Below, in pieces: positions 2-11,917 of a stretch of DNA of 12,393 bases (positions within the stretch are counted from its first letter, which is position 1; every line of letters starts with the position of its first letter). The notes beneath the pieces were generated by a model that searched no databases, was not told the DNA's origin, and saw nothing but the letters and a program-made list of their open reading frames with translations. This DNA is from Candidatus Heimdallarchaeota archaeon (GTDB lineage Archaea > Asgardarchaeota > Heimdallarchaeia > Heimdallarchaeales > Heimdallarchaeaceae): contig DAOVET010000079.1 of the NCBI GenBank assembly GCA_030668825.1, positions 1 to 12,393 on the forward strand, given 5' to 3'. The position numbers were made by a program, and so were the translations under genes.

Positions 2-538
2 GGATTGGTCATCTTGGCAACTCATCGATGCTTAGCTAAGGTCTCCGTAACTGAAGAAAAAATGAATGAACTCAAGATGTTCTTTGACATGAATGAAATT
101 ATGAAACCTGAAATCCCTAAATTTCTTGAAGAGAATAAGGATAAACATGCTTTTGTTATGTATCAGGAGAGTAGAGCTATTTCCTTGATTATGAAAGACA
201 TTTCTGCAATCAATAGATATGTCAGCGATGTAAGTGAGGAATATAAAAAACTAGATGTAGTCATTTTGAGAGATATGATATTCCATGGAATCATGGGTCT
301 TGAAGAACTTCACATCGATGATGACATTTTCTATGAAAGATGGTGGAATGAAGTTGTTGAAGAGGTGGATAAAGGTACTTACAAAGTAGCTTTTATTCTT
401 AATCCAACTAGTGCTGATGAAGTACTAAAAGTTTCTAAGAACCATGAAAGAATGCCTCAAAAAGCCACAGACTTCTATCCTAAGATGATAAGCGGTTTTA
501 CAATGTTAAGTTTAGAAGAAGGAGAAAAAATACTTTAA
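2..538 (+). CDS. DUF1015 family protein, C-terminal part (5'-truncated by window edge)
   Basis: The frame is open from the window start. GLVILATHR resembles the DUF1015 'GLxILPTHR' motif, and the C-terminal AFILNPTS...ERMPQKATDFYPKMISG matches the typical 'MPQKSTYFYPK.SG' ending. The TTG at 5 is not a real start. Confidence 0.85.
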   Translation, partial: GLVILATHRCLAKVSVTEEKMNELKMFFDMNEIMKPEIPKFLEENKDKHAFVMYQESRAISLIMKDISAINRYVSDVSEEYKKLDVVILRDMIFHGIMGLEELHIDDDIFYERWWNEVVEEVDKGTYKVAFILNPTSADEVLKVSKNHERMPQKATDFYPKMISGFTMLSLEEGEKIL

Positions 539-563: not shown

Positions 564-806
564 CTATCTTCCCCTTTCTGCTTCAATAAGACCAACAATT
601 TCTCCAACGGTGCTAAATTCCTTGAAAACTTTTTTAGGTAACCTAATGTCGAATTCATCTTCGATTCTTTTACCAAGTTCTTTTAGATCATTTTTACTGA
701 GTTTTAAGTCATCTTGAAAGTAAGTATTTGTTGTAACAACATGACTTTGAACATCTGCCACTTCAGCGATTAATAGTCTTAAGCGTGTTAATACTCTTGA
801 ATACAT
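564..806 (-). CDS. Acyl carrier protein-like protein with a non-canonical attachment site
   Basis: Aligns without gaps to E. coli-type AcpP (VTTNTYFQDDL..ELGKRIEDEFDIRLP..FSTVGEIVGLI vs VTNNASFVEDL..ELVMALEEEFDTEIP..ITTVQAAIDYI). The minus strand reads TAA-GAGGA-ATG-AAA-ATG, so the SD-like GAGGA is best spaced for the ATG at 806. The alternative start is 812. Confidence 0.8.
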   Translation of the reverse strand: MYSRVLTRLRLLIAEVADVQSHVVTTNTYFQDDLKLSKNDLKELGKRIEDEFDIRLPKKVFKEFSTVGEIVGLIEAERGR

Positions 807-817
807 TTTCATTCCTC

Positions 818-1750
818 TTACATTACTTTATCATAGAACATCTTAAGCGGATCCTCAATGGTATCAGATTTTCTTATAGCAATTACCATCTTATTAATCC
901 CCAGATCTTCATATTCTTTTATTTTCTCTTTGATATCTTCAGGATATCCTATAAATTGATTTTTCAACACTTCTTCGCGGGATGGTTTTGCATCTTCTTT
1001 TGCCCTATCAATAATGGCAGTTACAAGATTGTCAATTTCTTCTTGACTGCTAACTAGGTCTATTCCACCGAAGTATGAGATTTCAAATTCTTCATGAGTT
1101 CTGTTAAATTTCTCTAAGTGTTTGTGAATATTTTTAATTGTCTTAGGTAAATCATCCTTTTTAACATATGGTAGATTTATTCCATCTGCTTCCCTACAAG
1201 CGATTTCAGTCATTCTTTTACCAGTAGTACCTAAAACAATCTGTGGATGAGGTTTTTGGATTGGTTTGGGATAGTTTCTATTATTTTCTAATTTCCAGAA
1301 ATTTCCTTCAAAATTTGTAGAATCTTCAGTGAACAATTTTTTATAGATAGCTAAGGATTCTTCCAACTCATCAACTCTTTGTTTTCCATTTGGAAAGGGA
1401 TATCCATATGCTTTGTATTCTTCTTCATACCAACCAGCCCCTAACCATAGAAGAGCTCTTCCATTTGAAATATGATCTAGTGTACTAACCATCTTTGCTA
1501 GATATGCTGGATTTCGGAAGGAATTACAAAGAACAATATGACCCAATTTTATTTTTTTAGTTTCAATTGCTAAAGAGCTCATTAACATTAGAGCTTCTAA
1601 ATAAGATTCTTTTTTCTCTTGCTTTTCATCAAAACCAATTAAGTGATCGTTAACATGAGCAGATTCAAAACCAAATTCCTCTGCTCGAATAGTCAAATCC
1701 CTTATCTCAGGATACGTGTGAACTGTTCGAACATAGTAACCAAACTTCAT
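818..1750 (-). CDS. LLM class flavin/F420-dependent oxidoreductase (luciferase-like TIM barrel)
   Basis: Motifs AEEFGFESAHVNDHL, FRNPAYLAKMVSTLDHISNGR, GAGWYEEEYKAYG, PKPIQKPHPQI and ADGIN are characteristic of the family. Confidence 0.93.
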   Translation of the reverse strand: MKFGYYVRTVHTYPEIRDLTIRAEEFGFESAHVNDHLIGFDEKQEKKESYLEALMLMSSLAIETKKIKLGHIVLCNSFRNPAYLAKMVSTLDHISNGRALLWLGAGWYEEEYKAYGYPFPNGKQRVDELEESLAIYKKLFTEDSTNFEGNFWKLENNRNYPKPIQKPHPQIVLGTTGKRMTEIACREADGINLPYVKKDDLPKTIKNIHKHLEKFNRTHEEFEISYFGGIDLVSSQEEIDNLVTAIIDRAKEDAKPSREEVLKNQFIGYPEDIKEKIKEYEDLGINKMVIAIRKSDTIEDPLKMFYDKVM

Positions 1751-2565: not shown

Positions 2566-4221
2566 ATGATTCGTCAGTCTTTTAGAATGAAATTCATGGT
2601 TGATTTAAGAGAGAAAGAGATGAAAGCAACTTCCTATCTAGGAGATTTGAAAAGCAAAATAACTTCAAACTTGATAGTTACAGTCATTATCTCAATTCTT
2701 ATCTTAGTTTCAGCAATTCTTGTGAAGTTAGAGATGTCTGAATGGATATTTAGCAATATTGGATCAGCTTTTACTCATACCTTGGGTGAACCAATAAATG
2801 GAACAGTTTATTGGTATTTTGAAACCTATAGTGATGCAGATTACTACTATGAAGCCTATTTAGATGCTTTCCGAGGTGGGTGGAACCCATATAAAAGATA
2901 CTCAGACAGGCTTGATTTTTATGTATATGGACCTATTTTTATCTATGGTTTGTATTTTACATCTCTTTTGGTGCAGTTATTCAACCCAAGTATGACTTCA
3001 ACTATTTTGATGGAGGAATCAGTTAAATGGACAGCAATCAATTTTGATGCTTTATCAGCTGTTATGGTTTATCTTATAATTGTAAATTTCAGTTTTACAA
3101 AGGATAGAAAAATCTACAAACATGTGCTTGGATTAATAGGTACGTTTGCTTTTATTTTCATGCCTTTCAATTTATTTTATGTTGACACTTATTATCTTAA
3201 TATACCACAGATGACGTTTTTCACATTAATTGGATTTCTGCTAGTTATGAAGAAGAAATACAAGTTATCGGCATATTCTCTTACTTTAGCTTGGTTAACC
3301 AAACAAATGCCCTTATTCTTGATTATCCCAATATTCTCAATGATATGGAAGGAACATGATTTGAAAACAGCTGTTAAAAGATTTCTACGACCATTCTTAT
3401 TATCTACTCTTCTCTTCTCTATACCGTGGATATTCATAACTCCTCTCCTATACATAGGAAGAATACTTGCAGCTGGAAGACCTCTTTGGTATGCAACTTT
3501 GGACTCAATAGGTAATGCACATGGTACAACACTTGCACATTCTATTTTATACGGGGGCTCAGAATCTTTGGCACAATTTTATGTGTGGATTAATATACCA
3601 ATGATTCCGTTTATCCTGTTCTATGGTTTTTCTCTTTTCATAGGTCATTTTAATGGAAAAAAACTAGCTAACGATGATAAGATGTTTACTATTTATATTA
3701 CCTGGGTAATCATGATTACTCATACTTTTATTTCACGGGGTTTATTCAAATATTATGACGCATTCTTTACGCCATTCTTTATACTTTCAGCGATAGTATT
3801 ATCGAATACATTAATCGAAAAACTAAGAGATTATTTCAGAAAGAGAAAAAACAAAGACATCACAACAAAAGTAGAAGAAAGCACCTCAAGAAAAAATGGC
3901 CATATAGGAAAGGGTGTATCAGAAATTCTTTGTATTCTGATTCTTACTCTTGGTATATACTATTATAGTTGGATTATTATGATAAAAATACGATTTCTGC
4001 ATCCACTTTTCCTGCTGCTCCTAACAATGTTCATATCACTTTTTATCCCATGGAGATATTATAAAGAAATAGGCAAAAAAACAAACTACAAGCAACTGAA
4101 GCAAGATTTCAAGGATTTCTTTAAATATGTGAAGCAAAGTACAATTAATTCCTATAGAATTATAAAAAATATAATTATTAGATTCTTTAAGAAGCTAAAA
4201 TCTATTTTTAAGAAAAAATAG
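2566..4221 (+). CDS. Multi-pass membrane GT-C fold glycosyltransferase (GT87/PIG-M-like)
   Basis: About 10-12 hydrophobic segments. The first extracytoplasmic loop has YSDADYY..GWNPY..YVYGP (DxD, NPY, YxP), and KQMP follows a TM helix. The true start could be the ATG at 2587, 2596 or 2620. Confidence 0.7.
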   Translation: MIRQSFRMKFMVDLREKEMKATSYLGDLKSKITSNLIVTVIISILILVSAILVKLEMSEWIFSNIGSAFTHTLGEPINGTVYWYFETYSDADYYYEAYLDAFRGGWNPYKRYSDRLDFYVYGPIFIYGLYFTSLLVQLFNPSMTSTILMEESVKWTAINFDALSAVMVYLIIVNFSFTKDRKIYKHVLGLIGTFAFIFMPFNLFYVDTYYLNIPQMTFFTLIGFLLVMKKKYKLSAYSLTLAWLTKQMPLFLIIPIFSMIWKEHDLKTAVKRFLRPFLLSTLLFSIPWIFITPLLYIGRILAAGRPLWYATLDSIGNAHGTTLAHSILYGGSESLAQFYVWINIPMIPFILFYGFSLFIGHFNGKKLANDDKMFTIYITWVIMITHTFISRGLFKYYDAFFTPFFILSAIVLSNTLIEKLRDYFRKRKNKDITTKVEESTSRKNGHIGKGVSEILCILILTLGIYYYSWIIMIKIRFLHPLFLLLLTMFISLFIPWRYYKEIGKKTNYKQLKQDFKDFFKYVKQSTINSYRIIKNIIIRFFKKLKSIFKKK

Positions 4222-4468
4222 AAGAGTAAGATAAAAGCTGTAATACTTCTATGATTTAACAAGAAATTTATTTGAGGGTAAAAAATAGCTAGAAAAGATT
4301 ATTTGAAGATTAATTATTCTTCGTATTATTCAATTATTAATTGAAGAAATATAATCGACAAAAAGCGTAAAATGGAAAGGTAGTTGTTTTCCGACAAAAA
4401 TCATTAGGTTTTCCATAACACGAAAGTATTACATCATGTTATAAGAAGAACCCACCTTTTTGGAAACT

Positions 4469-5218
4469 ATGCATGTTAATGTAGTTACTTATGTTAGGGT
4501 TAGTACTTCAGATCAAGAATCTGGTAGAGACACACAGTACGACGTAATAGATAAGAAAATCAACACTGTTGGATATAGACATGTTCTTGAGTCATTCATA
4601 GATGAGGATGTTTCTGGGGACAGTCATGTTCAAGAAAGACCTGGTTTTAAGAAGATGTTGGAATTTATCCAAATGCATAATTCGCAGAGACCTGAAGATC
4701 CCGTCAAAGAAGTTTGGGTACAAACACGTGACAGGATTTCTAGAGAAGTAGATATGTTAGGATATGCTTCTGTGCTCTTACGAAGCAAAGGAGTAGAAAT
4801 TCGAGCAACTGAAGAATCTGATGAAATGCTTGTAACAAGAATTTACGATCTTCTAGGAGAGGAAGAGCTCAAAAAATATAGACAGAAAAGAATGTATGGA
4901 ATCAAGAGAAGAATCCAAGATGAAAAAATCATGTCTCGTCCGCCTATAGGTTACAAAATTGAATCTGGCAAGCTACTAATTGACGAAGAAATGCGCCCCA
5001 AACTGGTTGAGATTTTCCAGATGTTTGAAGACAATGTAACTATGTCTACTATAAGCAATAAATATGATATTCCTCGAAGTACTTTAGCTTATTTAAGAAA
5101 AAATCCTATTTATCGAACTGGTGAATACTTCTGGAAAGGGAGAGTTGTTTATCAAGTTGAACCTATAATAAAAGAAGGAGACGTTGAAGTCAGAGATGAA
5201 GACGACTTCTATAGTTAA
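4469..5218 (+). CDS. Serine recombinase (resolvase catalytic domain plus short recombinase DNA-binding domain)
   Basis: YVRVSTSDQ (catalytic Ser), DEDVSG...RPGFKKML, RDRISR, then PPIGY and KNPIYRTG..EPII of the recombinase domain. The ATG at 4469 is preferred over the TTG at 4460. Confidence 0.9.
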   Translation: MHVNVVTYVRVSTSDQESGRDTQYDVIDKKINTVGYRHVLESFIDEDVSGDSHVQERPGFKKMLEFIQMHNSQRPEDPVKEVWVQTRDRISREVDMLGYASVLLRSKGVEIRATEESDEMLVTRIYDLLGEEELKKYRQKRMYGIKRRIQDEKIMSRPPIGYKIESGKLLIDEEMRPKLVEIFQMFEDNVTMSTISNKYDIPRSTLAYLRKNPIYRTGEYFWKGRVVYQVEPIIKEGDVEVRDEDDFYS

Positions 5219-5220
5219 TC

Positions 5221-5263
5221 TTACTTTTTACTTTTTTTCTTCTATTTTTTATTTTCCATTTTT
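5221..5263 (+). terminator. Oligo-T terminator after the recombinase gene
   Basis: Several T5-T7 runs immediately after the stop codon. Confidence 0.55.
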
Positions 5264-5318
5264 CTAAAATCTCGGAACTCTTTTAAGTAATTGCACAATT
5301 GTTCTAGTTGAAAATAGC

Positions 5319-6545
5319 ATGAAGAGTAGTTTGAGAAAGTGTGCTCTTATCTTCTTCTCATGTATTTTATTCATTTCGATGTCTTACTCTGTCAAATCAG
5401 AAGATTCAGAATTTCCTTATGAATTATTAGAATTTTCAGATTCAAGTGTTCTTATTTCTATCACAAGTGATCAAGGGTTTATTGATTATGGATTCTCAGG
5501 TTCAGGAACTGCTTTAGATCCATATCTAATTGAAAACTATGTAATTGACTCATTTGATTATGGTGCAGGGATACATGTTGAGGATACTACAAAACACTTT
5601 GTTATTAGAAATTGTTCAATTAAAGCACTATGGGTTTGTATCTTTATCCGTGATGTATCTGATTATACTGCAACTATAACAAATAATACTTGTTATACAA
5701 CTTATACAAATCAATTAAGTAATAGAGGTATAGATATAAGAAGAACTAATGGTGCTATAATAACAAACAATATTTGTAAATACGAGAACTATAATTATTT
5801 CGATGAATATGGAGATTTTGGTATTTATTTGGCATATACCAATAATATGTTAGTTGATAATAATATCTGTTTGAATCAAAGTGCTAGTGGAATTTTTGGA
5901 GGGGGTGAAAATAACACTTTTACTAACAACTTATGTTCTTTCAATTTCTGGGGTTTAATGGTTGGAGGAAGAAATACTATCATAAAAAATAATATCATTA
6001 CTAACAATATCGAAGGATTAGATACAGGCGGTGCTGAAGTAGAGATAGATAACAATACAATTGGATTCAATGAAAGAGATGGAATAATGACATATGGTTT
6101 AGTAGATTCAGAAATTACAAACAATGTAATTGAATTCAATGGGTGGTATGGAATCAGATCTTGGGATACGCACAGAAGTAAATTTACCTACAATCTAATT
6201 AGAAACAATACAAAATATGGGGTTGCATTAGATGTTGACTCGAGATTCAATACTGTTCATCACAACTACTTCATTCATAATCATATAGATGGAACATCAC
6301 AAGCTTGCGATTCAGGAAGAGATAACTCCTGGCATGATACTGAAACAAAAAAAGGCAATTACTGGTCTGATTGGGATCAAAATAGTACATATCATATCAA
6401 TGGAAAAGCAGAAAACAATGACCTTTATCCCCTGAATGAGAATCTAGAAAGAACTTCTACTACAAAATTATATTATCCAGTGACAATGATTTTCTTGTTG
6501 GTAATCTTACTACATTTAAATAGACGAAAAAAAATTAGGTTTTAA
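5319..6545 (+). CDS. Secreted right-handed parallel beta-helix (NosD/CASH-like) protein with C-terminal membrane anchor
   Basis: N-terminal signal peptide, an ISITSD..GFSGSGTALDPYLIENY cap, repeated IxNNxC/IxNNxI coils and GNYWSDW..DLYPL. The tail is Thr-rich, then hydrophobic, then RRKK. Confidence 0.85.
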   Translation: MKSSLRKCALIFFSCILFISMSYSVKSEDSEFPYELLEFSDSSVLISITSDQGFIDYGFSGSGTALDPYLIENYVIDSFDYGAGIHVEDTTKHFVIRNCSIKALWVCIFIRDVSDYTATITNNTCYTTYTNQLSNRGIDIRRTNGAIITNNICKYENYNYFDEYGDFGIYLAYTNNMLVDNNICLNQSASGIFGGGENNTFTNNLCSFNFWGLMVGGRNTIIKNNIITNNIEGLDTGGAEVEIDNNTIGFNERDGIMTYGLVDSEITNNVIEFNGWYGIRSWDTHRSKFTYNLIRNNTKYGVALDVDSRFNTVHHNYFIHNHIDGTSQACDSGRDNSWHDTETKKGNYWSDWDQNSTYHINGKAENNDLYPLNENLERTSTTKLYYPVTMIFLLVILLHLNRRKKIRF

Positions 6546-6569
6546 TCTTAGAGTTATCTCTCTAGCTTA

Positions 6570-7001
6570 CTAAATAAAATATCTCCCTGTAAATCTTTCA
6601 TATTCACCTGGTAGTTTACCTATTTCTTGCAGATGAAGTAACCAAGCATGAGCTTCTGTTTCAACTTGAGGTTCCATTGCAGATCTATCGCCTCCACCTG
6701 TTCCCATTTGCATCTGGAATGGCCCCCAAGGACCTATCCCCTGCATGAAACTTGCTTCAGCTAAAACAACCGCTGCAAGATCTTTTAGATAAATTTCATC
6801 AGTTACGTTGACTAAACAGCGAGTAAAAGCTCTAACTAGCCAAGTAACATAATCGTTAATCCAATTGCCCATCATCCTTTTGGCCATATTCATAGCTATT
6901 TTTCCCATTGGAAAATTAGTTTTATAGTTGTCAAGATCAAATCTGCTTAAAGCAAAAGGAATGAGTATTTTTTCTAACTCTTCAACTTCGTGTTCACTCA
7001 T
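6570..7001 (-). CDS. Hypothetical protein
   Basis: 143-aa ORF filling the intergenic space, with protein-like composition and its own TATATAAA box 23 nt upstream. No family recognised. Confidence 0.75.
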   Translation of the reverse strand: MSEHEVEELEKILIPFALSRFDLDNYKTNFPMGKIAMNMAKRMMGNWINDYVTWLVRAFTRCLVNVTDEIYLKDLAAVVLAEASFMQGIGPWGPFQMQMGTGGGDRSAMEPQVETEAHAWLLHLQEIGKLPGEYERFTGRYFI

Positions 7002-7024
7002 GAAATAAAATAAGTATTTTACTA

Positions 7025-7032
7025 TTTATATA
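7025..7032 (-). promoter_or_regulatory. TATA box for the hypothetical gene (leaderless)
   Basis: TATATAAA on the minus strand, 23 nt before the ATG at 7001. Confidence 0.55.
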
Positions 7033-7045
7033 TTATTCCACTCAT

Positions 7046-8233
7046 TTAAAACCACAGCATGAATGAGCATGGCATTACTGGGAACAAATCTTTATGTTTC
7101 CATTCTTCAGGAATTTTTTTTCCAGTATGCTCTAGAAGATGTTCAACTTTAGAATAACCAATAAGAATTTGAGAAAGCTGATTAATTGATAGTTCTAGAA
7201 TTTTCTCCTTGGCAATATTTTGACCTTCGTTTTTTGATACTAAACATTTACCATCTTTTATTTGTAAATTCCAAATACCACTATTTTCTGGAAGAACATT
7301 GTCCTCGACTTGAAAATACAGTTTTTCATTCAATACAGAGTGATAGTCTAGTTGTTCGAAAGACTTCTTAATATCTAAAATTCTAAACATTGCTGGCCAT
7401 TGACTAAATTTGTGAGTGTCCTTTACACCATCTAAATAACCTTCAATTTCTTCTTGAACTGGGAGAGTTAAAGATATTTGATTTATGTCTGCTTCAAAAT
7501 TTCTTAAGAAAGCAAAAAGATTATGCTTTGCATCTATGTCTACATAAGCAAAATCCATTATTTGCATGTTGTGTTCCCATTCTTTTGCTTTTCTGAATTT
7601 CAAGGAAATATAAGCAATAGGTTTTTCGTCTCGCTCCATGAGATATATTTTGAAATAACCTTGTAGTTCTCCTCTGAGTAACCAAGCATCAACATCTCCT
7701 ATGACTCTTGTATATTTATTTAATGCATTTTTAGCTACTTGAATCAGAGGAGCGAAATCCTTCTTACCAGTTACTTCACTTATTTTGATATTATCTTCAA
7801 GCTTAAAGCTAGATTTTATATCACTTGGTTTGAAATTGTAATGGATAGCTTTTTCAGCATTTTCAAATCCAAATTTCTGATAGAAACCATGATCAAAAGG
7901 CCAAAGAGCTGCAACTGGATAACCTTGATTCTTCTTATCTATAATCAGTTTATTCATTAAATCCTTAACATAACCTTTTCTTCTTTGTACTGGGTTAGTC
8001 ATAACATAAGCAATTCCAGCACAGTCAAACAACATTTCTCTAATGAACATTTGAAATTTATATGAACCAGCAGCTGCCAGAAGAGTATTTTCTTCAAAAG
8101 CTCCTAACATTTTCAACTCTTGAATACCTGCAAAGAATTTTTCCATTTCTTTAGCTGGTTCATGGAAGCATAATACAGCTAACTTGACAGCTTGGTCTAT
8201 ATCTTCTGAATCTTTGAACTCTCTAATCATCAT
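7046..8233 (-). CDS. Eis-like GNAT N-acetyltransferase (tandem GNAT plus C-terminal SCP2-like domain)
   Basis: GIAYVMTNPVQRRKGY (acetyl-CoA motif A), AALWPFDHGFYQKFGFE, MFRILD, VEDNVLPENSG and LSQILIGY, at about 395 aa as in the Eis family. Confidence 0.88.
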   Translation of the reverse strand: MMIREFKDSEDIDQAVKLAVLCFHEPAKEMEKFFAGIQELKMLGAFEENTLLAAAGSYKFQMFIREMLFDCAGIAYVMTNPVQRRKGYVKDLMNKLIIDKKNQGYPVAALWPFDHGFYQKFGFENAEKAIHYNFKPSDIKSSFKLEDNIKISEVTGKKDFAPLIQVAKNALNKYTRVIGDVDAWLLRGELQGYFKIYLMERDEKPIAYISLKFRKAKEWEHNMQIMDFAYVDIDAKHNLFAFLRNFEADINQISLTLPVQEEIEGYLDGVKDTHKFSQWPAMFRILDIKKSFEQLDYHSVLNEKLYFQVEDNVLPENSGIWNLQIKDGKCLVSKNEGQNIAKEKILELSINQLSQILIGYSKVEHLLEHTGKKIPEEWKHKDLFPVMPCSFMLWF

Positions 8234-8413
8234 AGTTCAAGCAAACTTCAAGAAAAGTGCTATATCAATTTAATGATTAAATACAATAAAGAAAAATAAG
8301 GTAAGAGAGGGGTTAAAATCAGTCTTTATGAATGTTTATAGGATTTAAAATATCCCTAAACAATAAACTTTCTCAATAACGATTTGAAAACCTACTTAGA
8401 GTGTCGAACAAAG

Positions 8414-8421
8414 TTTTTAAA
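8414..8421 (+). promoter_or_regulatory. TATA box for plsY
   Basis: TTTTTAAA preceded by purine-rich GAACAAAG (BRE-like), about 22 nt before the ATG at 8444. Confidence 0.5.
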
Positions 8422-8443
8422 GAAGCTTAGAAGAGATTCTGAC

Positions 8444-9190
8444 ATGATATCTATTGATGTTCTTTGGGCAGCAGGAATAGGTTATCTTTTAGGTTCAATT
8501 CCAATTGCTTGGATTGTTGTTAAATTATGGTTAAGAATAGACATACGTACAGTTGGTTCTAAAAATGTAGGAGGTAGAAACGTAATTCGAGCATTTCAAG
8601 CAGAAGGAAAACCAAAAGGATTGGCTTATACTGTTGGAATGATAGAAGCTATACTTGATATGTTAAAGGGTTTCTTTGCCATGTGGTTAACTGTATATAT
8701 CTCGTTCGCATTTAGTAATAGTGATCTCTGGGTAGTCGCTTTTGCTGGTCCTGCAGCAATTCTAGGTCATAATTGGCCCATATGGCTTTGGGGTCCAGGA
8801 GGAAAAGGTGTTGCATCTACCTTGGGTTCTATGATATTCTTTAATCCAATATTCTTACCTATATGGTTAGTAATGTATTTCATTTTGGGATCAGCTATCA
8901 TGTATAGTGCAATAACATATTTAGTAAGTTTCATCGTTATGGGTGTTCTCTTCATCTTTTGGGGAACATACATTTGGACTTGGGTTTCTCCAACAACCGG
9001 TATTGCGGATTTAAATAATCCAGCTGTAACTGGCATATTTGGTTGGGTAGCATTCGCCACAATGATAGCTATTACTTTAGTTGTTCTTTCACGACAAGGA
9101 GAAAACTTCAGAAAGATTAAGACTGGTGAAGCTAAAAAGATGAAACTATGGAAAATATTCCAAGGAAAAGCAGATGAAGCTTTAAAATAG
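8444..9190 (+). CDS. plsY: Glycerol-3-phosphate acyltransferase PlsY family protein
   Basis: GYLLGSIP, DIRTVGSKNVGGRN (motif 1), LDMLKG, GHNWPIW..GGKGVAS (motif 2) and RQGENFRKIKTGEA (motif 3 variant). The ATG at 8444 is favoured over the TTG at 8384 by homology length and TATA position. Confidence 0.9.
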   Translation: MISIDVLWAAGIGYLLGSIPIAWIVVKLWLRIDIRTVGSKNVGGRNVIRAFQAEGKPKGLAYTVGMIEAILDMLKGFFAMWLTVYISFAFSNSDLWVVAFAGPAAILGHNWPIWLWGPGGKGVASTLGSMIFFNPIFLPIWLVMYFILGSAIMYSAITYLVSFIVMGVLFIFWGTYIWTWVSPTTGIADLNNPAVTGIFGWVAFATMIAITLVVLSRQGENFRKIKTGEAKKMKLWKIFQGKADEALK

Positions 9191-9197
9191 CTGACAC

Positions 9198-9220
9198 TTT
9201 CCTTTTTTCTTCTTTCTTTT
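9198..9220 (+). terminator. Oligo-T terminator after plsY
   Basis: Pure pyrimidine, T-rich tract starting about 7 nt after the stop codon. Confidence 0.55.
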
Positions 9221-9347
9221 ATGATATCTTTATAACAAAATGATAAATAGAAAAAAAAATATCTTGGATACTTGAAAATAATCTATCCAAAATCTATTTC
9301 TCAATAATTTGATTACACCAAATTAGATATTAAATTGAAGCAAATAA

Positions 9348-9355
9348 TTTTATAA
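9348..9355 (+). promoter_or_regulatory. TATA box for the S8 peptidase (leaderless)
   Basis: TTTTATAA preceded by GAAGCAAA, 23 nt before the ATG at 9379. Confidence 0.55.
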
Positions 9356-9378
9356 GTTACTTTAGTCAGCTAATAATT

Positions 9379-10575
9379 ATGAAAAAAGGATTCAAACATG
9401 TTTTAGCTACTTCATTATTAATTGTTCTATTTTCACTAAATTACAACTCTGCAATGAGTAAACCTGACATAGCTCTACCTCCAAATATGAAAGCTAATGA
9501 TGAAGGATGGCATCTTTCACATATAAGTATTCATGGGGCATGGGAGAAGACATATGGAAATGAAAGTCTAACTATTGCAGTAATTGATTCTGGTATAGAC
9601 TTTTCTCATCCACAATTAGTAGGAAAATCCTGGAATAATGCAGATGAAATTCCAGAAAATGGGTTAGATGACGACAGTAATGGTTATATTGATGATACAG
9701 CTGGATGGGATTTTGTTTCCAACGATAGTATTCCTGGACCAGATGTTGTAGATCCTATTCATTGGCATTCTACTTTCATTTCAGGTATCATAGCAGCTCC
9801 ACTTGATGGAGTTGGTGTTGCAGGAGTTGCACCTAATGTGACTATTATGGATATAAGAGTCCTTAATTTAGATAATTATGCTGGGACAACATATGAGGAA
9901 TTTGGAGATGCTATACGTTATGCTGCAGATAATGGTGCAGATATTATTAACCTAAGCCTTCATTATTATAACGCGACTGAAGATTATCATGATGACATTA
10001 TATATGCTATTAATCAAAACATTCCTGTAGTATCTGTAACAGGTAACACTTACTTATCGTATGGGGGAGGAAGATATTTCCAATCATATCCAGGAGGTTA
10101 TGATGAAGTTATTTCAGTTGGTGCAACTAACGTCCATAAAGAAAAAGCAGATTATAGTAACTATGGTCCATGGACTGAACTCGTAGCACCTGTTGGAGAT
10201 GAAGCACCAGGAACTAAAATCCAAAGTTCATTTCCTCCCGATACTTATGTATCAGCTTATGGCACTTCTTTTGCTTGCCCTCAAGTTGCTGGAGTTATTG
10301 CTTTAATGAGATCCATAAATTATTCCATGTCTGTTGGTGAAATTAGAGAGATTCTTCATGAAACAGCTGATGATTTAGGAGATGAAGGTAAGGATGACTA
10401 TTTTGGGTATGGAATGGTAAATGCAACAGCAGCAGTTCTTGAAACGTATTATAGAGTATTTGGTTATCCAACAACTACAAAAACTAGCGCACCATATGTT
10501 TTACTTAGTTTTGCTGTCCTAATCCTTGTTGCCATACCAATAACTGTTAAAAAATTCAAAACAATGGAGAAGTAG
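9379..10575 (+). CDS. S8 family (subtilisin-like) serine peptidase, secreted and C-terminally anchored
   Basis: Triad motifs IAVIDSGID, HSTFISGIIAA and GTSFACPQVAG, oxyanion TGN, the NGLDDDSNGYIDD..GWDF insertion, a signal peptide, and a C-terminal TM segment followed by KK. Confidence 0.93.
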   Translation: MKKGFKHVLATSLLIVLFSLNYNSAMSKPDIALPPNMKANDEGWHLSHISIHGAWEKTYGNESLTIAVIDSGIDFSHPQLVGKSWNNADEIPENGLDDDSNGYIDDTAGWDFVSNDSIPGPDVVDPIHWHSTFISGIIAAPLDGVGVAGVAPNVTIMDIRVLNLDNYAGTTYEEFGDAIRYAADNGADIINLSLHYYNATEDYHDDIIYAINQNIPVVSVTGNTYLSYGGGRYFQSYPGGYDEVISVGATNVHKEKADYSNYGPWTELVAPVGDEAPGTKIQSSFPPDTYVSAYGTSFACPQVAGVIALMRSINYSMSVGEIREILHETADDLGDEGKDDYFGYGMVNATAAVLETYYRVFGYPTTTKTSAPYVLLSFAVLILVAIPITVKKFKTMEK

Positions 10576-10615
10576 AAACAACTTCTTCCCTTTAGCTTTT
10601 TCTGCTTCATAAATA

Positions 10616-11917
10616 TCAAGAAATAGAATATAGAATATCAAGCGCCTTAGGAATATTTTCTTCACTTATGGAACAAAATGCAACTCTTATTCCATTTAAG
10701 TCATTTACTGTATTTACAAATGGAATCGTTCCTAATCCTTTTTCTAAAAGCTTTGTTGATATCTCTGTAGCTGTCTGTTGATTTTTTATTAGATAATAAC
10801 CAAAGAATCCTGAGTTGAATTTTACAGGTTTAAGTACCTCACTAGTTATTTCTTCTCCGAGTTTCTTGATTAATTTGTATCTTCTAGAAAGAATATTCAG
10901 ATTTCTCAATTTCTCTTTTTTTATTTGTTCTTTCTTTCCTTCATCTGTTAGGACATTAGTTAATGCTTCTTGAATACCTCTAGGTGCGCTTGAAGTGTTA
11001 GTTCTTGCCGCTTTAGCCATTAGTTCTCTGACTTGAGCTTTTTCCTCTTCATCCCTTTCTGATCCAAAACCTACTGTCATTGTACCCAATCTTGCTCCAT
11101 AAGCACAGTATCTTTTTGAAACTCCATCGATTTTTACTGCAACTACATTATCATTTAAACCTACTAAATAGGGGAAAATGGAATGGTTAACAACATCATC
11201 TTCATAACAATAATTTTCGTACGCGTCATCAAGAAATAGAACTGTTGGAACTGTAATCTTTTCCAATGTTTCTTGTAATTCTTTAATTTGATCTAATGTA
11301 GGGCTAATTCCAGATGGATTGTTAGGAAAATTAAGATAAACCCCTATTTTTTTCTCTGTTTTTTGACATTCAATTAATTTATCACTCAAATTTGAGAGAG
11401 AAAGATTACCTTCTTGGTCAACTAGCTTATATGGTATTTCTTTTAGTTGCTGATTCTTGAAAAAAACATTATCTACGTTTCCCCATCTTGTATTTGGAGC
11501 TAATAATGTGTCACCTTTGTCAAAGAAAATTTGACCTGCTAACATCAATCCTCCAGTTAAACCACCACATGCAGTTATCGGAAGAGTTGAAAGATCTTCA
11601 GTTTTTTTTCTTAATTCAGTAGGATAGCTTTCTAGAGTATCTTTTTTCCAAGCTTGAACAAAAGTATGTAATCCTCTCATATTTGCATATGCGAATAATT
11701 GATCTCCTGTTAATTGTCGAAGTTCATCATAAAGAGTTGGTAGAACCATCAACCTTCCATCATCTTCAGTTGCTGTTCCTGTTGTAGCATTAATAAAGTC
11801 TGAACTCTCCTTTGCTCTTGTTTTGGCCTTTAATCCCCAAGCTATAGTGCTTGCTGAAAGATCAACATTGTTCTCTAAATATTGACCTTTTTTTGATAAA
11901 TACTTTTCAAGAATCAT
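10616..11917 (-). CDS. PLP-dependent aminotransferase class I/II
   Basis: INATTGTAT, NFPNNPSG, DDAY, DGVSKRYCAYGARLG (PLP Lys) and IRVAF. The ATG at 11917, with TTTAAATT about 25 nt upstream, is preferred over the TTG at 11941. Confidence 0.9.
   Translation of the reverse strand: MILEKYLSKKGQYLENNVDLSASTIAWGLKAKTRAKESSDFINATTGTATEDDGRLMVLPTLYDELRQLTGDQLFAYANMRGLHTFVQAWKKDTLESYPTELRKKTEDLSTLPITACGGLTGGLMLAGQIFFDKGDTLLAPNTRWGNVDNVFFKNQQLKEIPYKLVDQEGNLSLSNLSDKLIECQKTEKKIGVYLNFPNNPSGISPTLDQIKELQETLEKITVPTVLFLDDAYENYCYEDDVVNHSIFPYLVGLNDNVVAVKIDGVSKRYCAYGARLGTMTVGFGSERDEEEKAQVRELMAKAARTNTSSAPRGIQEALTNVLTDEGKKEQIKKEKLRNLNILSRRYKLIKKLGEEITSEVLKPVKFNSGFFGYYLIKNQQTATEISTKLLEKGLGTIPFVNTVNDLNGIRVAFCSISEENIPKALDILYSIS

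Follow-up and report, generated by a model that had tools for sequence, protein, structure and literature searches.

A serine-less acyl carrier protein-like family in Heimdallarchaeaceae, putatively a cofactor-free binding module

[quoted passage not shown] We came to this family through one gene in a 12,393-nucleotide stretch of a Candidatus Heimdallarchaeota assembly (the window, meaning the whole stretch that was analyzed), in which Lys40 occupies the attachment position. Judged from the comparison of homologs, the loss of carrier function is close to shown. We favor, with some confidence, a putative role as a non-carrier, cofactor-free binding module with an ACP fold. Within this reading, the pattern of constraint and the precedent of a mitochondrial ACP suggest both a mode of action, the binding of other proteins, and the face that would be used. 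The original prediction for this gene had offered three readings: a cofactor-free ACP put to new use as a binder or interaction module, a carrier modified on a shifted Ser (Ser39), and a Lys-linked carrier. The first of these stands as far as it concerns carrier loss, given the confirmed fold, the missing Ser, and the purifying selection described below, and its binding part we can only infer. The other two did not hold.

The features of the locus are given in Table 1. The gene had been described as an 82-residue open reading frame. Its position, its strand, and the codons of Lys40 and Ser39 were as described; the start needs revision. The second ATG is probably the real start, yielding a protein of 80 residues, because the Shine-Dalgarno-like GAGGA abuts the first ATG (812) and lies 6 nt ahead of the second (806), because the first residue of the 82-residue frame is Ile in one ortholog (L010), and because public members of the family are mostly 80 residues long. 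Residue numbers throughout follow the 82-residue form. The gene is neighbored by that of a luciferase-like (LLM class) oxidoreductase and by a gene that, judged from its motif, is DUF1015-like; the window also encodes an archaeal-type SSB. PADLOC defense-system models gave no match for the ACP-like protein.

Table 1. Coordinates of the serine-less ACP-like gene and adjoining features in the window
Feature	Position	Strand	Basis or remark
CDS of the Ser-less ACP-fold protein, 80 aa (probable start)	564..806	-	ATG 806-804, stop 566-564; PF00550, AF2 four-helix model, Foldseek, VIA
Listed ORF with the first ATG (812-810), 82 aa	564..812	-	ORF list; 82-aa numbering used for residues
Codon AAA, Lys40; phosphopantetheine Ser position (predicted), first residue of helix II	693..695	-	Plus strand ttt
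Codon AGT, Ser39; helix II N-cap position, at the Asp of the canonical Asp-Ser pair	696..698	-	Plus strand act
Residues 53-82: helix II end, helix III, helix IV, and C-terminal tail; proposed binding face	567..656	-	Consensus EF...P.....EFnT.GEi.G.iE.E.gR
11-nt gap from the oxidoreductase stop (TAA, 820-818) to the probable start, with GAGGA at 817-813	807..817	-	Sequence reading
Upstream luciferase-like (LLM class) oxidoreductase gene, 310 aa, probably F420 dependent	818..1750	-	PF00296, 157 bits

The host metagenome-assembled genome comprises 2.76 Mb and is 90.6% complete, so absences from this assembly are not proven. The stretch itself recurs in independent data. A metagenome contig of 3,719 nt (X5) matches it with 8 differences, and it is also present in independent cold-seep and marine-sediment assemblies. 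In one population variant (X9), a T>A change at position 693 turns Lys40 into Asn. Two sequencing runs that might be of RNA but are probably of DNA each yielded one short contig; these contigs covered the SSB gene and a portion of the oxidoreductase gene, with no coverage of the ACP-like gene.

The assignment of an ACP fold with Lys at the Ser36 position of AcpP was borne out both by sequence and by the structure model. The PP-binding profile PF00550 matches at 23.9 bits (cutoff, 20.8), with residues 10 to 76 on profile positions 2 to 67 of 67. The AcpP equivalog model TIGR00517 scores 45.1 bits against a cutoff of 70.45, and all other ACP equivalog models likewise remain under their cutoffs. 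A phmmer search against solved structures returned 57 distinct ACP sequences at an E value of <=0.01. In ungapped HMMER alignments, the query segment DDLKLSKNDL lies over EDLGADSLDV or EDLNADSLDI of solved ACPs, a register in which Lys40 coincides with the attachment Ser and Ser39 with the Asp before it. The AF2 model, built from an alignment of 24 orthologs, has a pLDDT of 93.5 and helices at residues 2 to 19, 40 to 54, 62 to 65, and 69 to 80; helix II begins at residue 40, with column 39 immediately before it. Foldseek gave 50 PDB matches at an E value of <=1e-3, and those among the matches listed were all ACPs or ACP-containing complexes (best match, 6lvu_A, with a TM score of 0.85 and an rmsd of 1.3; TM scores to ACPs, 0.85 to 0.90). 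VIA-align superposed the model on ACPs with Z scores of 13 to 15.4 and rmsd values of 1.0 to 1.6 over 74 to 81 residues. In these superpositions, residues 5 to 81 of the model fall on residues 1 to 77 of Escherichia coli butyryl-ACP (1l0i; 77 of 77 aligned), and residues 5 to 78 fall on residues 1 to 74 of Bacillus subtilis ACP (1f80_E). This makes Lys40 equivalent to residue 36, the cofactor-bearing residue of both proteins. The sequence and structure registers agree, and the protein is modeled throughout as a four-helix ACP with Lys40 at the phosphopantetheine Ser position.

A further feature that had been pointed out, 15 Lys/Arg residues against 14 Asp/Glu residues, is counted correctly for the 82-residue form. 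The nonacidic character, however, belongs to this allele only, as the net charge among orthologs ranges from -9 to +4 and the pI ranges from 4.2 to 9.5.

We then considered how widely the protein and its two site columns are shared. Matches occur in 25 of the 31 genomes of the host's taxonomic family, and 24 of them are orthologs with 46 to 100% identity. In a profile search of 83 Heimdallarchaeia genomes, the family was found in 24, all from two genera: the host genome, 21 of the 24 other genomes of its genus, and both genomes of a sister genus. A collection of 5.8 billion proteins contained 75 clusters at an E value of <=1e-10. When 1.8 billion representatives were scanned exhaustively with HMMER, only three proteins passed the same threshold, and the others among the matches listed were generic ACP relatives. 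According to record names, near-identical proteins come from Candidatus Heimdallarchaeaceae MAGs, including Heimdallarchaeota AB_125, and the most distant member (P0006) is also from Heimdallarchaeaceae; the locus of P0006 was not found in genome or metagenome contig collections. A Ser-bearing canonical ACP in one related genome (G003) was considered as a close homolog with the normal motif and was rejected. It has 30% identity to the query and lies on a 1.9-kb contig of a 6%-contaminated assembly, together with the genes for RNase III and smc, in an order (acpP, RNase III, smc) that is presumably typical of low-GC bacteria. We read this ACP as a bacterial contaminant.

Column 40, the Ser position, holds Lys in 14, Glu in 6, Asn in 2, and Asp in 2 of the 24 genome orthologs and thus Ser in none of them. 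The 75 public clusters have Lys in 33, Asp in 23, Glu in 16, and Asn, Gly, and Ser in 1 each, leaving 74 of 75 without Ser. The sole exception (P0223) is a single sequence with Asp-Ser, whose long branch arises from among Asp-Lys rows, and this cluster counts against the cofactor-free reading. Column 39 is equally mixed, with Asp (10), Ser (8), Asn (3), and Thr (3) in the orthologs and Asp (26), Ser (23), Asn (18), Thr (7), and Gly (1) in the clusters. On a 64-row tree, the distribution of Ser at column 39 needs at least three changes, and the four-row Ser39 clade that contains the query sits inside a well-supported 14-row clade with mostly Asp. Lys and Asn at column 40 differ even between near-identical strains. 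Neither the 24 orthologs nor the 75 clusters contain an invariant Ser, Thr, Cys, or Lys column. Asp, Ser, Asn, and Thr are the preferred N-cap residues of helices. Ser39 does no more than cap helix II at its N terminus, and Lys40, a polar residue on the surface, is free to vary. The Ser-Lys pair is therefore not a conserved trait of the homologs, and since both of its residues are unconserved, neither the shifted-Ser nor the Lys-linked carrier reading is tenable.

The gene is under purifying selection, which is strongest in the C-terminal third. The median pairwise dN/dS is 0.26 (range, 0.035 to 0.55), with the median taken over the 91 of 253 pairs that had a dS between 0.1 and 1.5. Codons 51 to 80 have a median of 0.14, versus 0.35 for codons 1 to 50. 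The open frame is intact in all 24 genome copies. Eleven columns (L36, L43, E53, F54, E65, F66, G70, E71, G74, E77, and E79) are invariant across orthologs whose identity goes down to 46%, and the C-terminal G81 and R82 are nearly so. Conservation in the family peaks at residues 53 to 82, which include five invariant Glu and two invariant Phe residues. Helix II, which serves classical ACPs for recognition, varies in charge and is not consistently acidic across the family. Purifying selection implies that the gene is not decaying, and the concern that the query might be a degenerate allele of an ordinary carrier gene is put aside by this and by the family-wide absence of Ser from the column.

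As to origin, the family profile scores free-standing ACPs at 54 to 61 bits and the ACP domains of the lineage's own megasynthase at 8 to 32 bits, and BLASTP aligns the ACP-like protein with a megasynthase ACP domain at 19% identity. On these values, we rejected an origin by duplication of a megasynthase ACP domain. The most economical reading of the sequences is a bacterial-type free-standing ACP that was acquired by transfer and lost its Ser later.

In the reading that we favor, a free-standing bacterial-type ACP would have given rise to a lineage-specific descendant whose attachment site is permanently lost and which carries nothing covalently. The descendant would have kept the compact four-helix fold and would act as a small binding module, either an adaptor or a regulatory subunit. 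Contact with a partner would be made through the surface that residues 53 to 82 form, from the end of helix II through helices III and IV to the C-terminal tail. Our alignments show that E53, F54, P59, and the T68-x-G70 region are partly common to ordinary ACPs, so part of this conserved face may reflect maintenance of the fold and not an interface. A search of the host genome for LYR-motif proteins (PF05347) gave no match at an E value of <=0.1, which means that the only experimentally understood class of partners for a Ser-less ACP is absent. This agrees with a published survey, the consulted portion of which reports no LYRM in prokaryotes (PMC11293456).

The gene neighborhood suggests a more specific possibility. 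The ACP-like protein could be a dedicated noncatalytic subunit of the upstream oxidoreductase, forming a stoichiometric complex in which it stabilizes or regulates the enzyme or presents its substrate. Besides its PF00296 match, the oxidoreductase scores 203 bits with TIGR03560, under the cutoff of 231, and the two CofE (F420 ligase) homologs in the host genome make F420 plausibly available to it. The oxidoreductase gene is directly upstream in 22 of 24 ortholog loci. The short gap between the genes leaves no space for a promoter, so the two are probably cotranscribed as a rule. The pair is retained with equally tight spacing in the sister genus (g2), where both outer flanks are different. On the other hand, oxidoreductase orthologs with 68 to 69% identity in three further genera (g3, g4, and g5) have no ACP-like gene behind them. 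Two genomes (G010 and G028) have kept the ACP-like gene although the oxidoreductase gene is deleted, the best remaining match being 35% identical, and the ACP-like genes of these two still differ with a dN/dS of only 0.04 (0.029/0.758), a mark of strong purifying selection. As far as can be told from these genomes, the function of the ACP-like protein is independent of the neighboring oxidoreductase. Comparison of the 15 partnered oxidoreductases with the 3 unpartnered ones singled out just one position that is invariant in the former and different in all of the latter, which amounts to no signal of coadaptation in the enzyme. Fused or longer forms were not found with the family profile, although this search was a weak one. 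We consider a dedicated subunit rather unlikely, and with evidence on both sides, the oxidoreductase is one candidate partner and not the explanation.

A second candidate comes from the ACP chemistry of the lineage. The original prediction had started from the premise that the host lacks such chemistry. This premise does not apply to the lineage, whose genomes specify a type I megasynthase that contains ACP domains and an integral phosphopantetheinyl transferase (PPTase). In the host, contig C129 carries a megasynthase gene with ER, KS, AT, and KS-like domains and two ACP domains; the gene is interrupted by a single in-frame TAA, and the contig ends before the gene does. The intact megasynthase of a relative (G024) has 3,350 residues in the order ER (NMO type), KS, AT, KS-like, two ACP domains, KR, DH, and Sfp-type PPTase, and it is flanked by genes for biotin ligase, carboxyltransferase, alpha/beta hydrolase, BCCP, and biotin carboxylase. 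PPTase domains occur in 28 of 31 genomes from the host's family and, across the class, in 62 of 83 genomes, mostly within frames of 3,200 to 3,600 residues. None was detected in the 90.6%-complete host assembly, in which the contig expected to carry it ends early. The two KS matches of the host genome both lie inside the megasynthase frame, PlsX was not found in the same incomplete assembly, and no type II FAS partner genes were found beside the ACP-like gene. In many of the megasynthase ACP domains, Thr stands in place of the attachment Ser, and the PPTase domain of the lineage appears to tolerate Thr for Ser on its own ACP domains. A phrase search of the literature found no paper on Thr replacing Ser at carrier sites, and our literature searches likewise gave no paper describing either the Heimdallarchaeia megasynthase or the Ser-less ACP-like protein. 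The real ACP chemistry of the lineage resides in the class-wide megasynthase, which is of more direct relevance to fatty acid synthesis in archaea than the small protein.

The ACP-like protein might act on this fatty acid synthase-like megasynthase, for example, as a decoy or regulator at the ACP docking sites of its KS, AT, or PPTase domains. Such docking domains are present in the megasynthase (about 3,350 residues) of the host genome and its relatives, every sufficiently assembled genome of the family that has the ACP-like gene also has the megasynthase, and an apo-type ACP fold would be a natural ligand shape for the docking domains. The genes are unlinked, however, and the megasynthase occurs without the ACP-like gene in genera g3 to g5 and in families f3, f4, and f7. 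Moreover, ACPs usually dock through helix II, and in the ACP-like family it is this helix that varies. Action on the megasynthase is thus improbable, and more so than a subunit role in the oxidoreductase. A broader formulation, in which a transferred bacterial ACP became a cofactor-free adaptor that binds and controls either the oxidoreductase or the megasynthase through a new interface of helices III and IV and the C-terminal tail, can be put forward tentatively as the possible specific form of the binding module.

Three other explanations fared worse. The protein might bind or carry a hydrophobic small molecule (a lipid, aldehyde, or cofactor) noncovalently in its core. ACP cores can sequester acyl chains, and the family of the neighboring enzyme often acts on hydrophobic substrates, but to our knowledge, ACPs hold chains only when these are tethered through the prosthetic arm. 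The invariant Phe54 and Phe66, together with Phe or Leu at position 63, would also lie where the pocket is expected, and we regard such a binder as quite improbable. The gene is very unlikely to be a functionless, decaying relic of a transferred bacterial acpP: it has lost the attachment Ser, is confined to two genera, and evolves faster than its neighbor (49% versus 77% identity between genera), but its intact frames, its eleven invariant columns, and a dN/dS that falls to 0.04 to 0.14 in subsets speak against decay. Least credible of all is a protein that is still a covalent carrier through Ser39, Lys40, or another residue, for although Ser39 adjoins the canonical site in this allele and the lineage has an apparently Thr-tolerant PPTase domain, Asp or Asn fills column 39 in 44 of 75 clusters, Ser or Thr stands at column 40 in just 1 of 75, no nucleophilic residue is invariant, and the Ser39 clade arose recently from among rows that bear Asp.

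The absence of the attachment Ser has consequences for how these genomes are read. Public records label members of the family "acyl carrier protein" or "phosphopantetheine-binding protein," and the family is therefore likely to be taken as evidence that Asgard archaea make lipids in an ACP-dependent way, a matter that bears on the lipid divide and on the origin of eukaryotic membranes. With the loss of carrier function close to shown, it should not be counted as such. There is no curated model that separates Ser-less ACP folds from real carriers, and a phrase search of the literature for Ser-less ACPs found no paper. Ser-less ACP folds as such are not unique. What is new here is a coherent and selected archaeal family, confined to two genera and mislabeled in public records, which gives a prokaryotic entry to the very short list of ACP folds kept without their prosthetic group. 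If the adaptor reading is true, the family would be the first prokaryotic counterpart of acylation-independent ACP scaffolding, which has so far been seen only in apicomplexan mitochondria.

Among known systems, the bacterial type II ACP (AcpP; PF00550, TIGR00517) is the closest. The ACP-like protein resembles it in the four-helix fold, the length, and the ungapped register, as well as in several short motifs (D-L preceding the site, E-F where helix II ends, the Pro that follows, and T-x-G ahead of helix IV), and its best sequence matches are free-standing ACPs. It differs in the absence of the attachment Ser, in a TIGR00517 score under the cutoff, and in a helix II that is not consistently acidic. 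The helix III region reads K-N-I-F-K-E-F, whereas the aligned solved ACPs have acidic residues, for example, D-E-D-A-E-K-I. Classical ACPs use the acidic face of helix II, while the face proposed here is made up of residues 53 to 82.

The ACP domains of the lineage's megasynthase share the superfamily and the genomes of the small protein, and they too depart from the norm at the attachment position. They differ from the small protein in sequence, as described above, and in having kept a Ser or Thr hydroxyl at the site, which leaves them plausible carriers. Attachment Ser is also missing from scattered bacterial ACP-like proteins (for example, P0025, P0034, P0057, P0107, and the tandem-repeat protein P0007). 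Among the best 150 representative matches, 20 have no Ser at the column, and 17 of the 147 proteins outside the family lack it in every aligned domain. In contrast to the archaeal family, these proteins come from unrelated lineages, carry Glu, His, Tyr, Gln, Ala, or Pro as the replacing residue, and lack the C-terminal signature; they score only against generic "acyl carrier protein" models.

The nearest functional parallel is the mitochondrial ACP of Plasmodium falciparum, in which, according to the consulted part of the published account, Phe replaces Ser and the protein binds Isd11-Nfs1 without the phosphopantetheine group (PMC8547962). As far as that account goes, both proteins have an ACP fold, have replaced the attachment Ser (with Phe there and with Lys, Asp, or Glu here), and are kept under selection. 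The Plasmodium protein is eukaryotic and organellar with a demonstrated LYR-motif partner, and no LYR-motif protein was found in the host genome. The replacing Phe is conserved in the Plasmodium protein and forms part of the interface, as described in the same part of the account, whereas the replacing residue varies freely in the archaeal family, and any interface of the ACP-like protein must therefore be elsewhere.

Carrier domains in the host's lineage also occur in a megasynthase some 3,350 aa long. Its domain order is ER(NMO)-KS-AT-KS-like-ACPx2-KR-DH-PPTase, and its gene is flanked by those for a biotin ligase, a carboxyltransferase, an alpha/beta hydrolase, BCCP, and biotin carboxylase. 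We found a PPTase domain in 28 of the 31 host-family genomes and in 62 of the 83 genomes of the class, mostly within frames of 3,200 to 3,600 aa. In the own-genome copy, the KS domain is interrupted by a single in-frame TAA (locus L006, 5762-5764), which divides the frame into open reading frames at 3401-5764 and 5870-10663; either a nonsense mutation or an error of assembly could account for it. No PPTase was detected in the own genome because the contig carrying this copy stops short of the KR, DH, and PPTase parts.

The ACP domains of the megasynthase frequently carry the motif D-L-G-I-D-T-[VI]-K, with Thr at the expected phosphopantetheine Ser position. The carrier-site residues were T,T in the host's own genus, T,T,T in the sister genus, and T,T,T,T in a genome from another family (G033). 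Ser and Thr can also be mixed within a single protein (S,T,T,S in genome G003 and S,T,S in genome G006). This interchange inside one protein suggests, at the sequence level, that the built-in PPTase accepts Thr.

In the Ser-less ACP-like protein, Lys40 occupies the phosphopantetheine Ser position and is naturally polymorphic. A contig from run X9 has a T>A change at window position 693 that turns Lys40 into Asn (the contig also differs nearby at 639, 642, 663, and 701), and the public proteins P0001 and P0002 show the same K/N difference at position 40. Of the 150 best representative matches, 147 came from outside the family, and 17 of these had no attachment-column Ser in any aligned domain. 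These Ser-less proteins (e.g., P0007, P0025, P0034, P0057, P0064, P0102, P0106, and P0107) matched generic ACP models only, and one of 295 aa contains two ACP-like repeats (D-L-G-A-K-P-A-D and D-L-K-A-K-A-A-D). Only one canonical, Ser-bearing free ACP was found among the genomes of the host's family (L031; G003:C585, 1-1933). Its contig is 1.9 kb long with the gene order acpP, RNase III, smc, the contamination of the G003 assembly is 6%, and the contig is probably a bacterial contaminant.

The convergent gene downstream of the ACP-like gene encodes a 427-aa protein that we take to be DUF1015-like from its A-D-G-H-H-R motif; the 178-aa fragment in the window, scanned alone, had no Pfam match. 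This gene and the ACP-like gene are neighbours in the host genus; in the sister genus they are not. In the two genomes that have lost the oxidoreductase gene and kept the ACP-like gene, a 352-aa gene stands between the ACP-like and DUF1015-like genes. The copy in L018 has an N-terminal Rossmann-type motif (G-A-G-S-I-G) and is presumably ketopantoate-reductase-like.

Elsewhere in the window, a PlsY-type homolog is encoded, here in an archaeon; PlsX (PF02504) was not found in the 90.6%-complete assembly of the own genome. The serine recombinase possibly marks a mobile element.

Coordinates of features in the window and in loci (L) drawn from Heimdallarchaeia genomes (G, with contig C; G000, own genome)
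Feature	Position	Strand	Remark
Megasynthase, own genome	L006 3401-10663 (G000:C129)		
Megasynthase, G024	L046 2520-12572 (G024:C146)		
ACP domains with Thr/Ser site	L006 about 9990-10300		Own genome; also L046, L055, L056, L057, L039
427-aa gene, 3' part	window 2-538	+	Convergent, downstream of ACP-like gene
427-aa gene, full-length copy	L010 1775-3058	-	
352-aa gene	L018 1091-2149 (G010:C119)	-	Convergent to ACP-like gene
Multi-pass membrane protein, 551 aa	window 2566-4221	+	No family match
Serine recombinase	window 4460-5218	+	Resolvase domain
143-aa protein	window 6570-7001	-	No family match
Eis-like acetyltransferase	window 7046-8233	-	GNAT + SCP2
PlsY-type glycerol-3-phosphate acyltransferase homolog	window 8384-9190	+	PF02660, 108 bits

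Our literature search found no paper on this megasynthase and none that speaks of "threonine instead of serine" at carrier sites. According to a preprint, archaea are without FAS I/II and without ACP synthase. The megasynthase described here is fatty-acid-synthase-like or PUFA-synthase-like.
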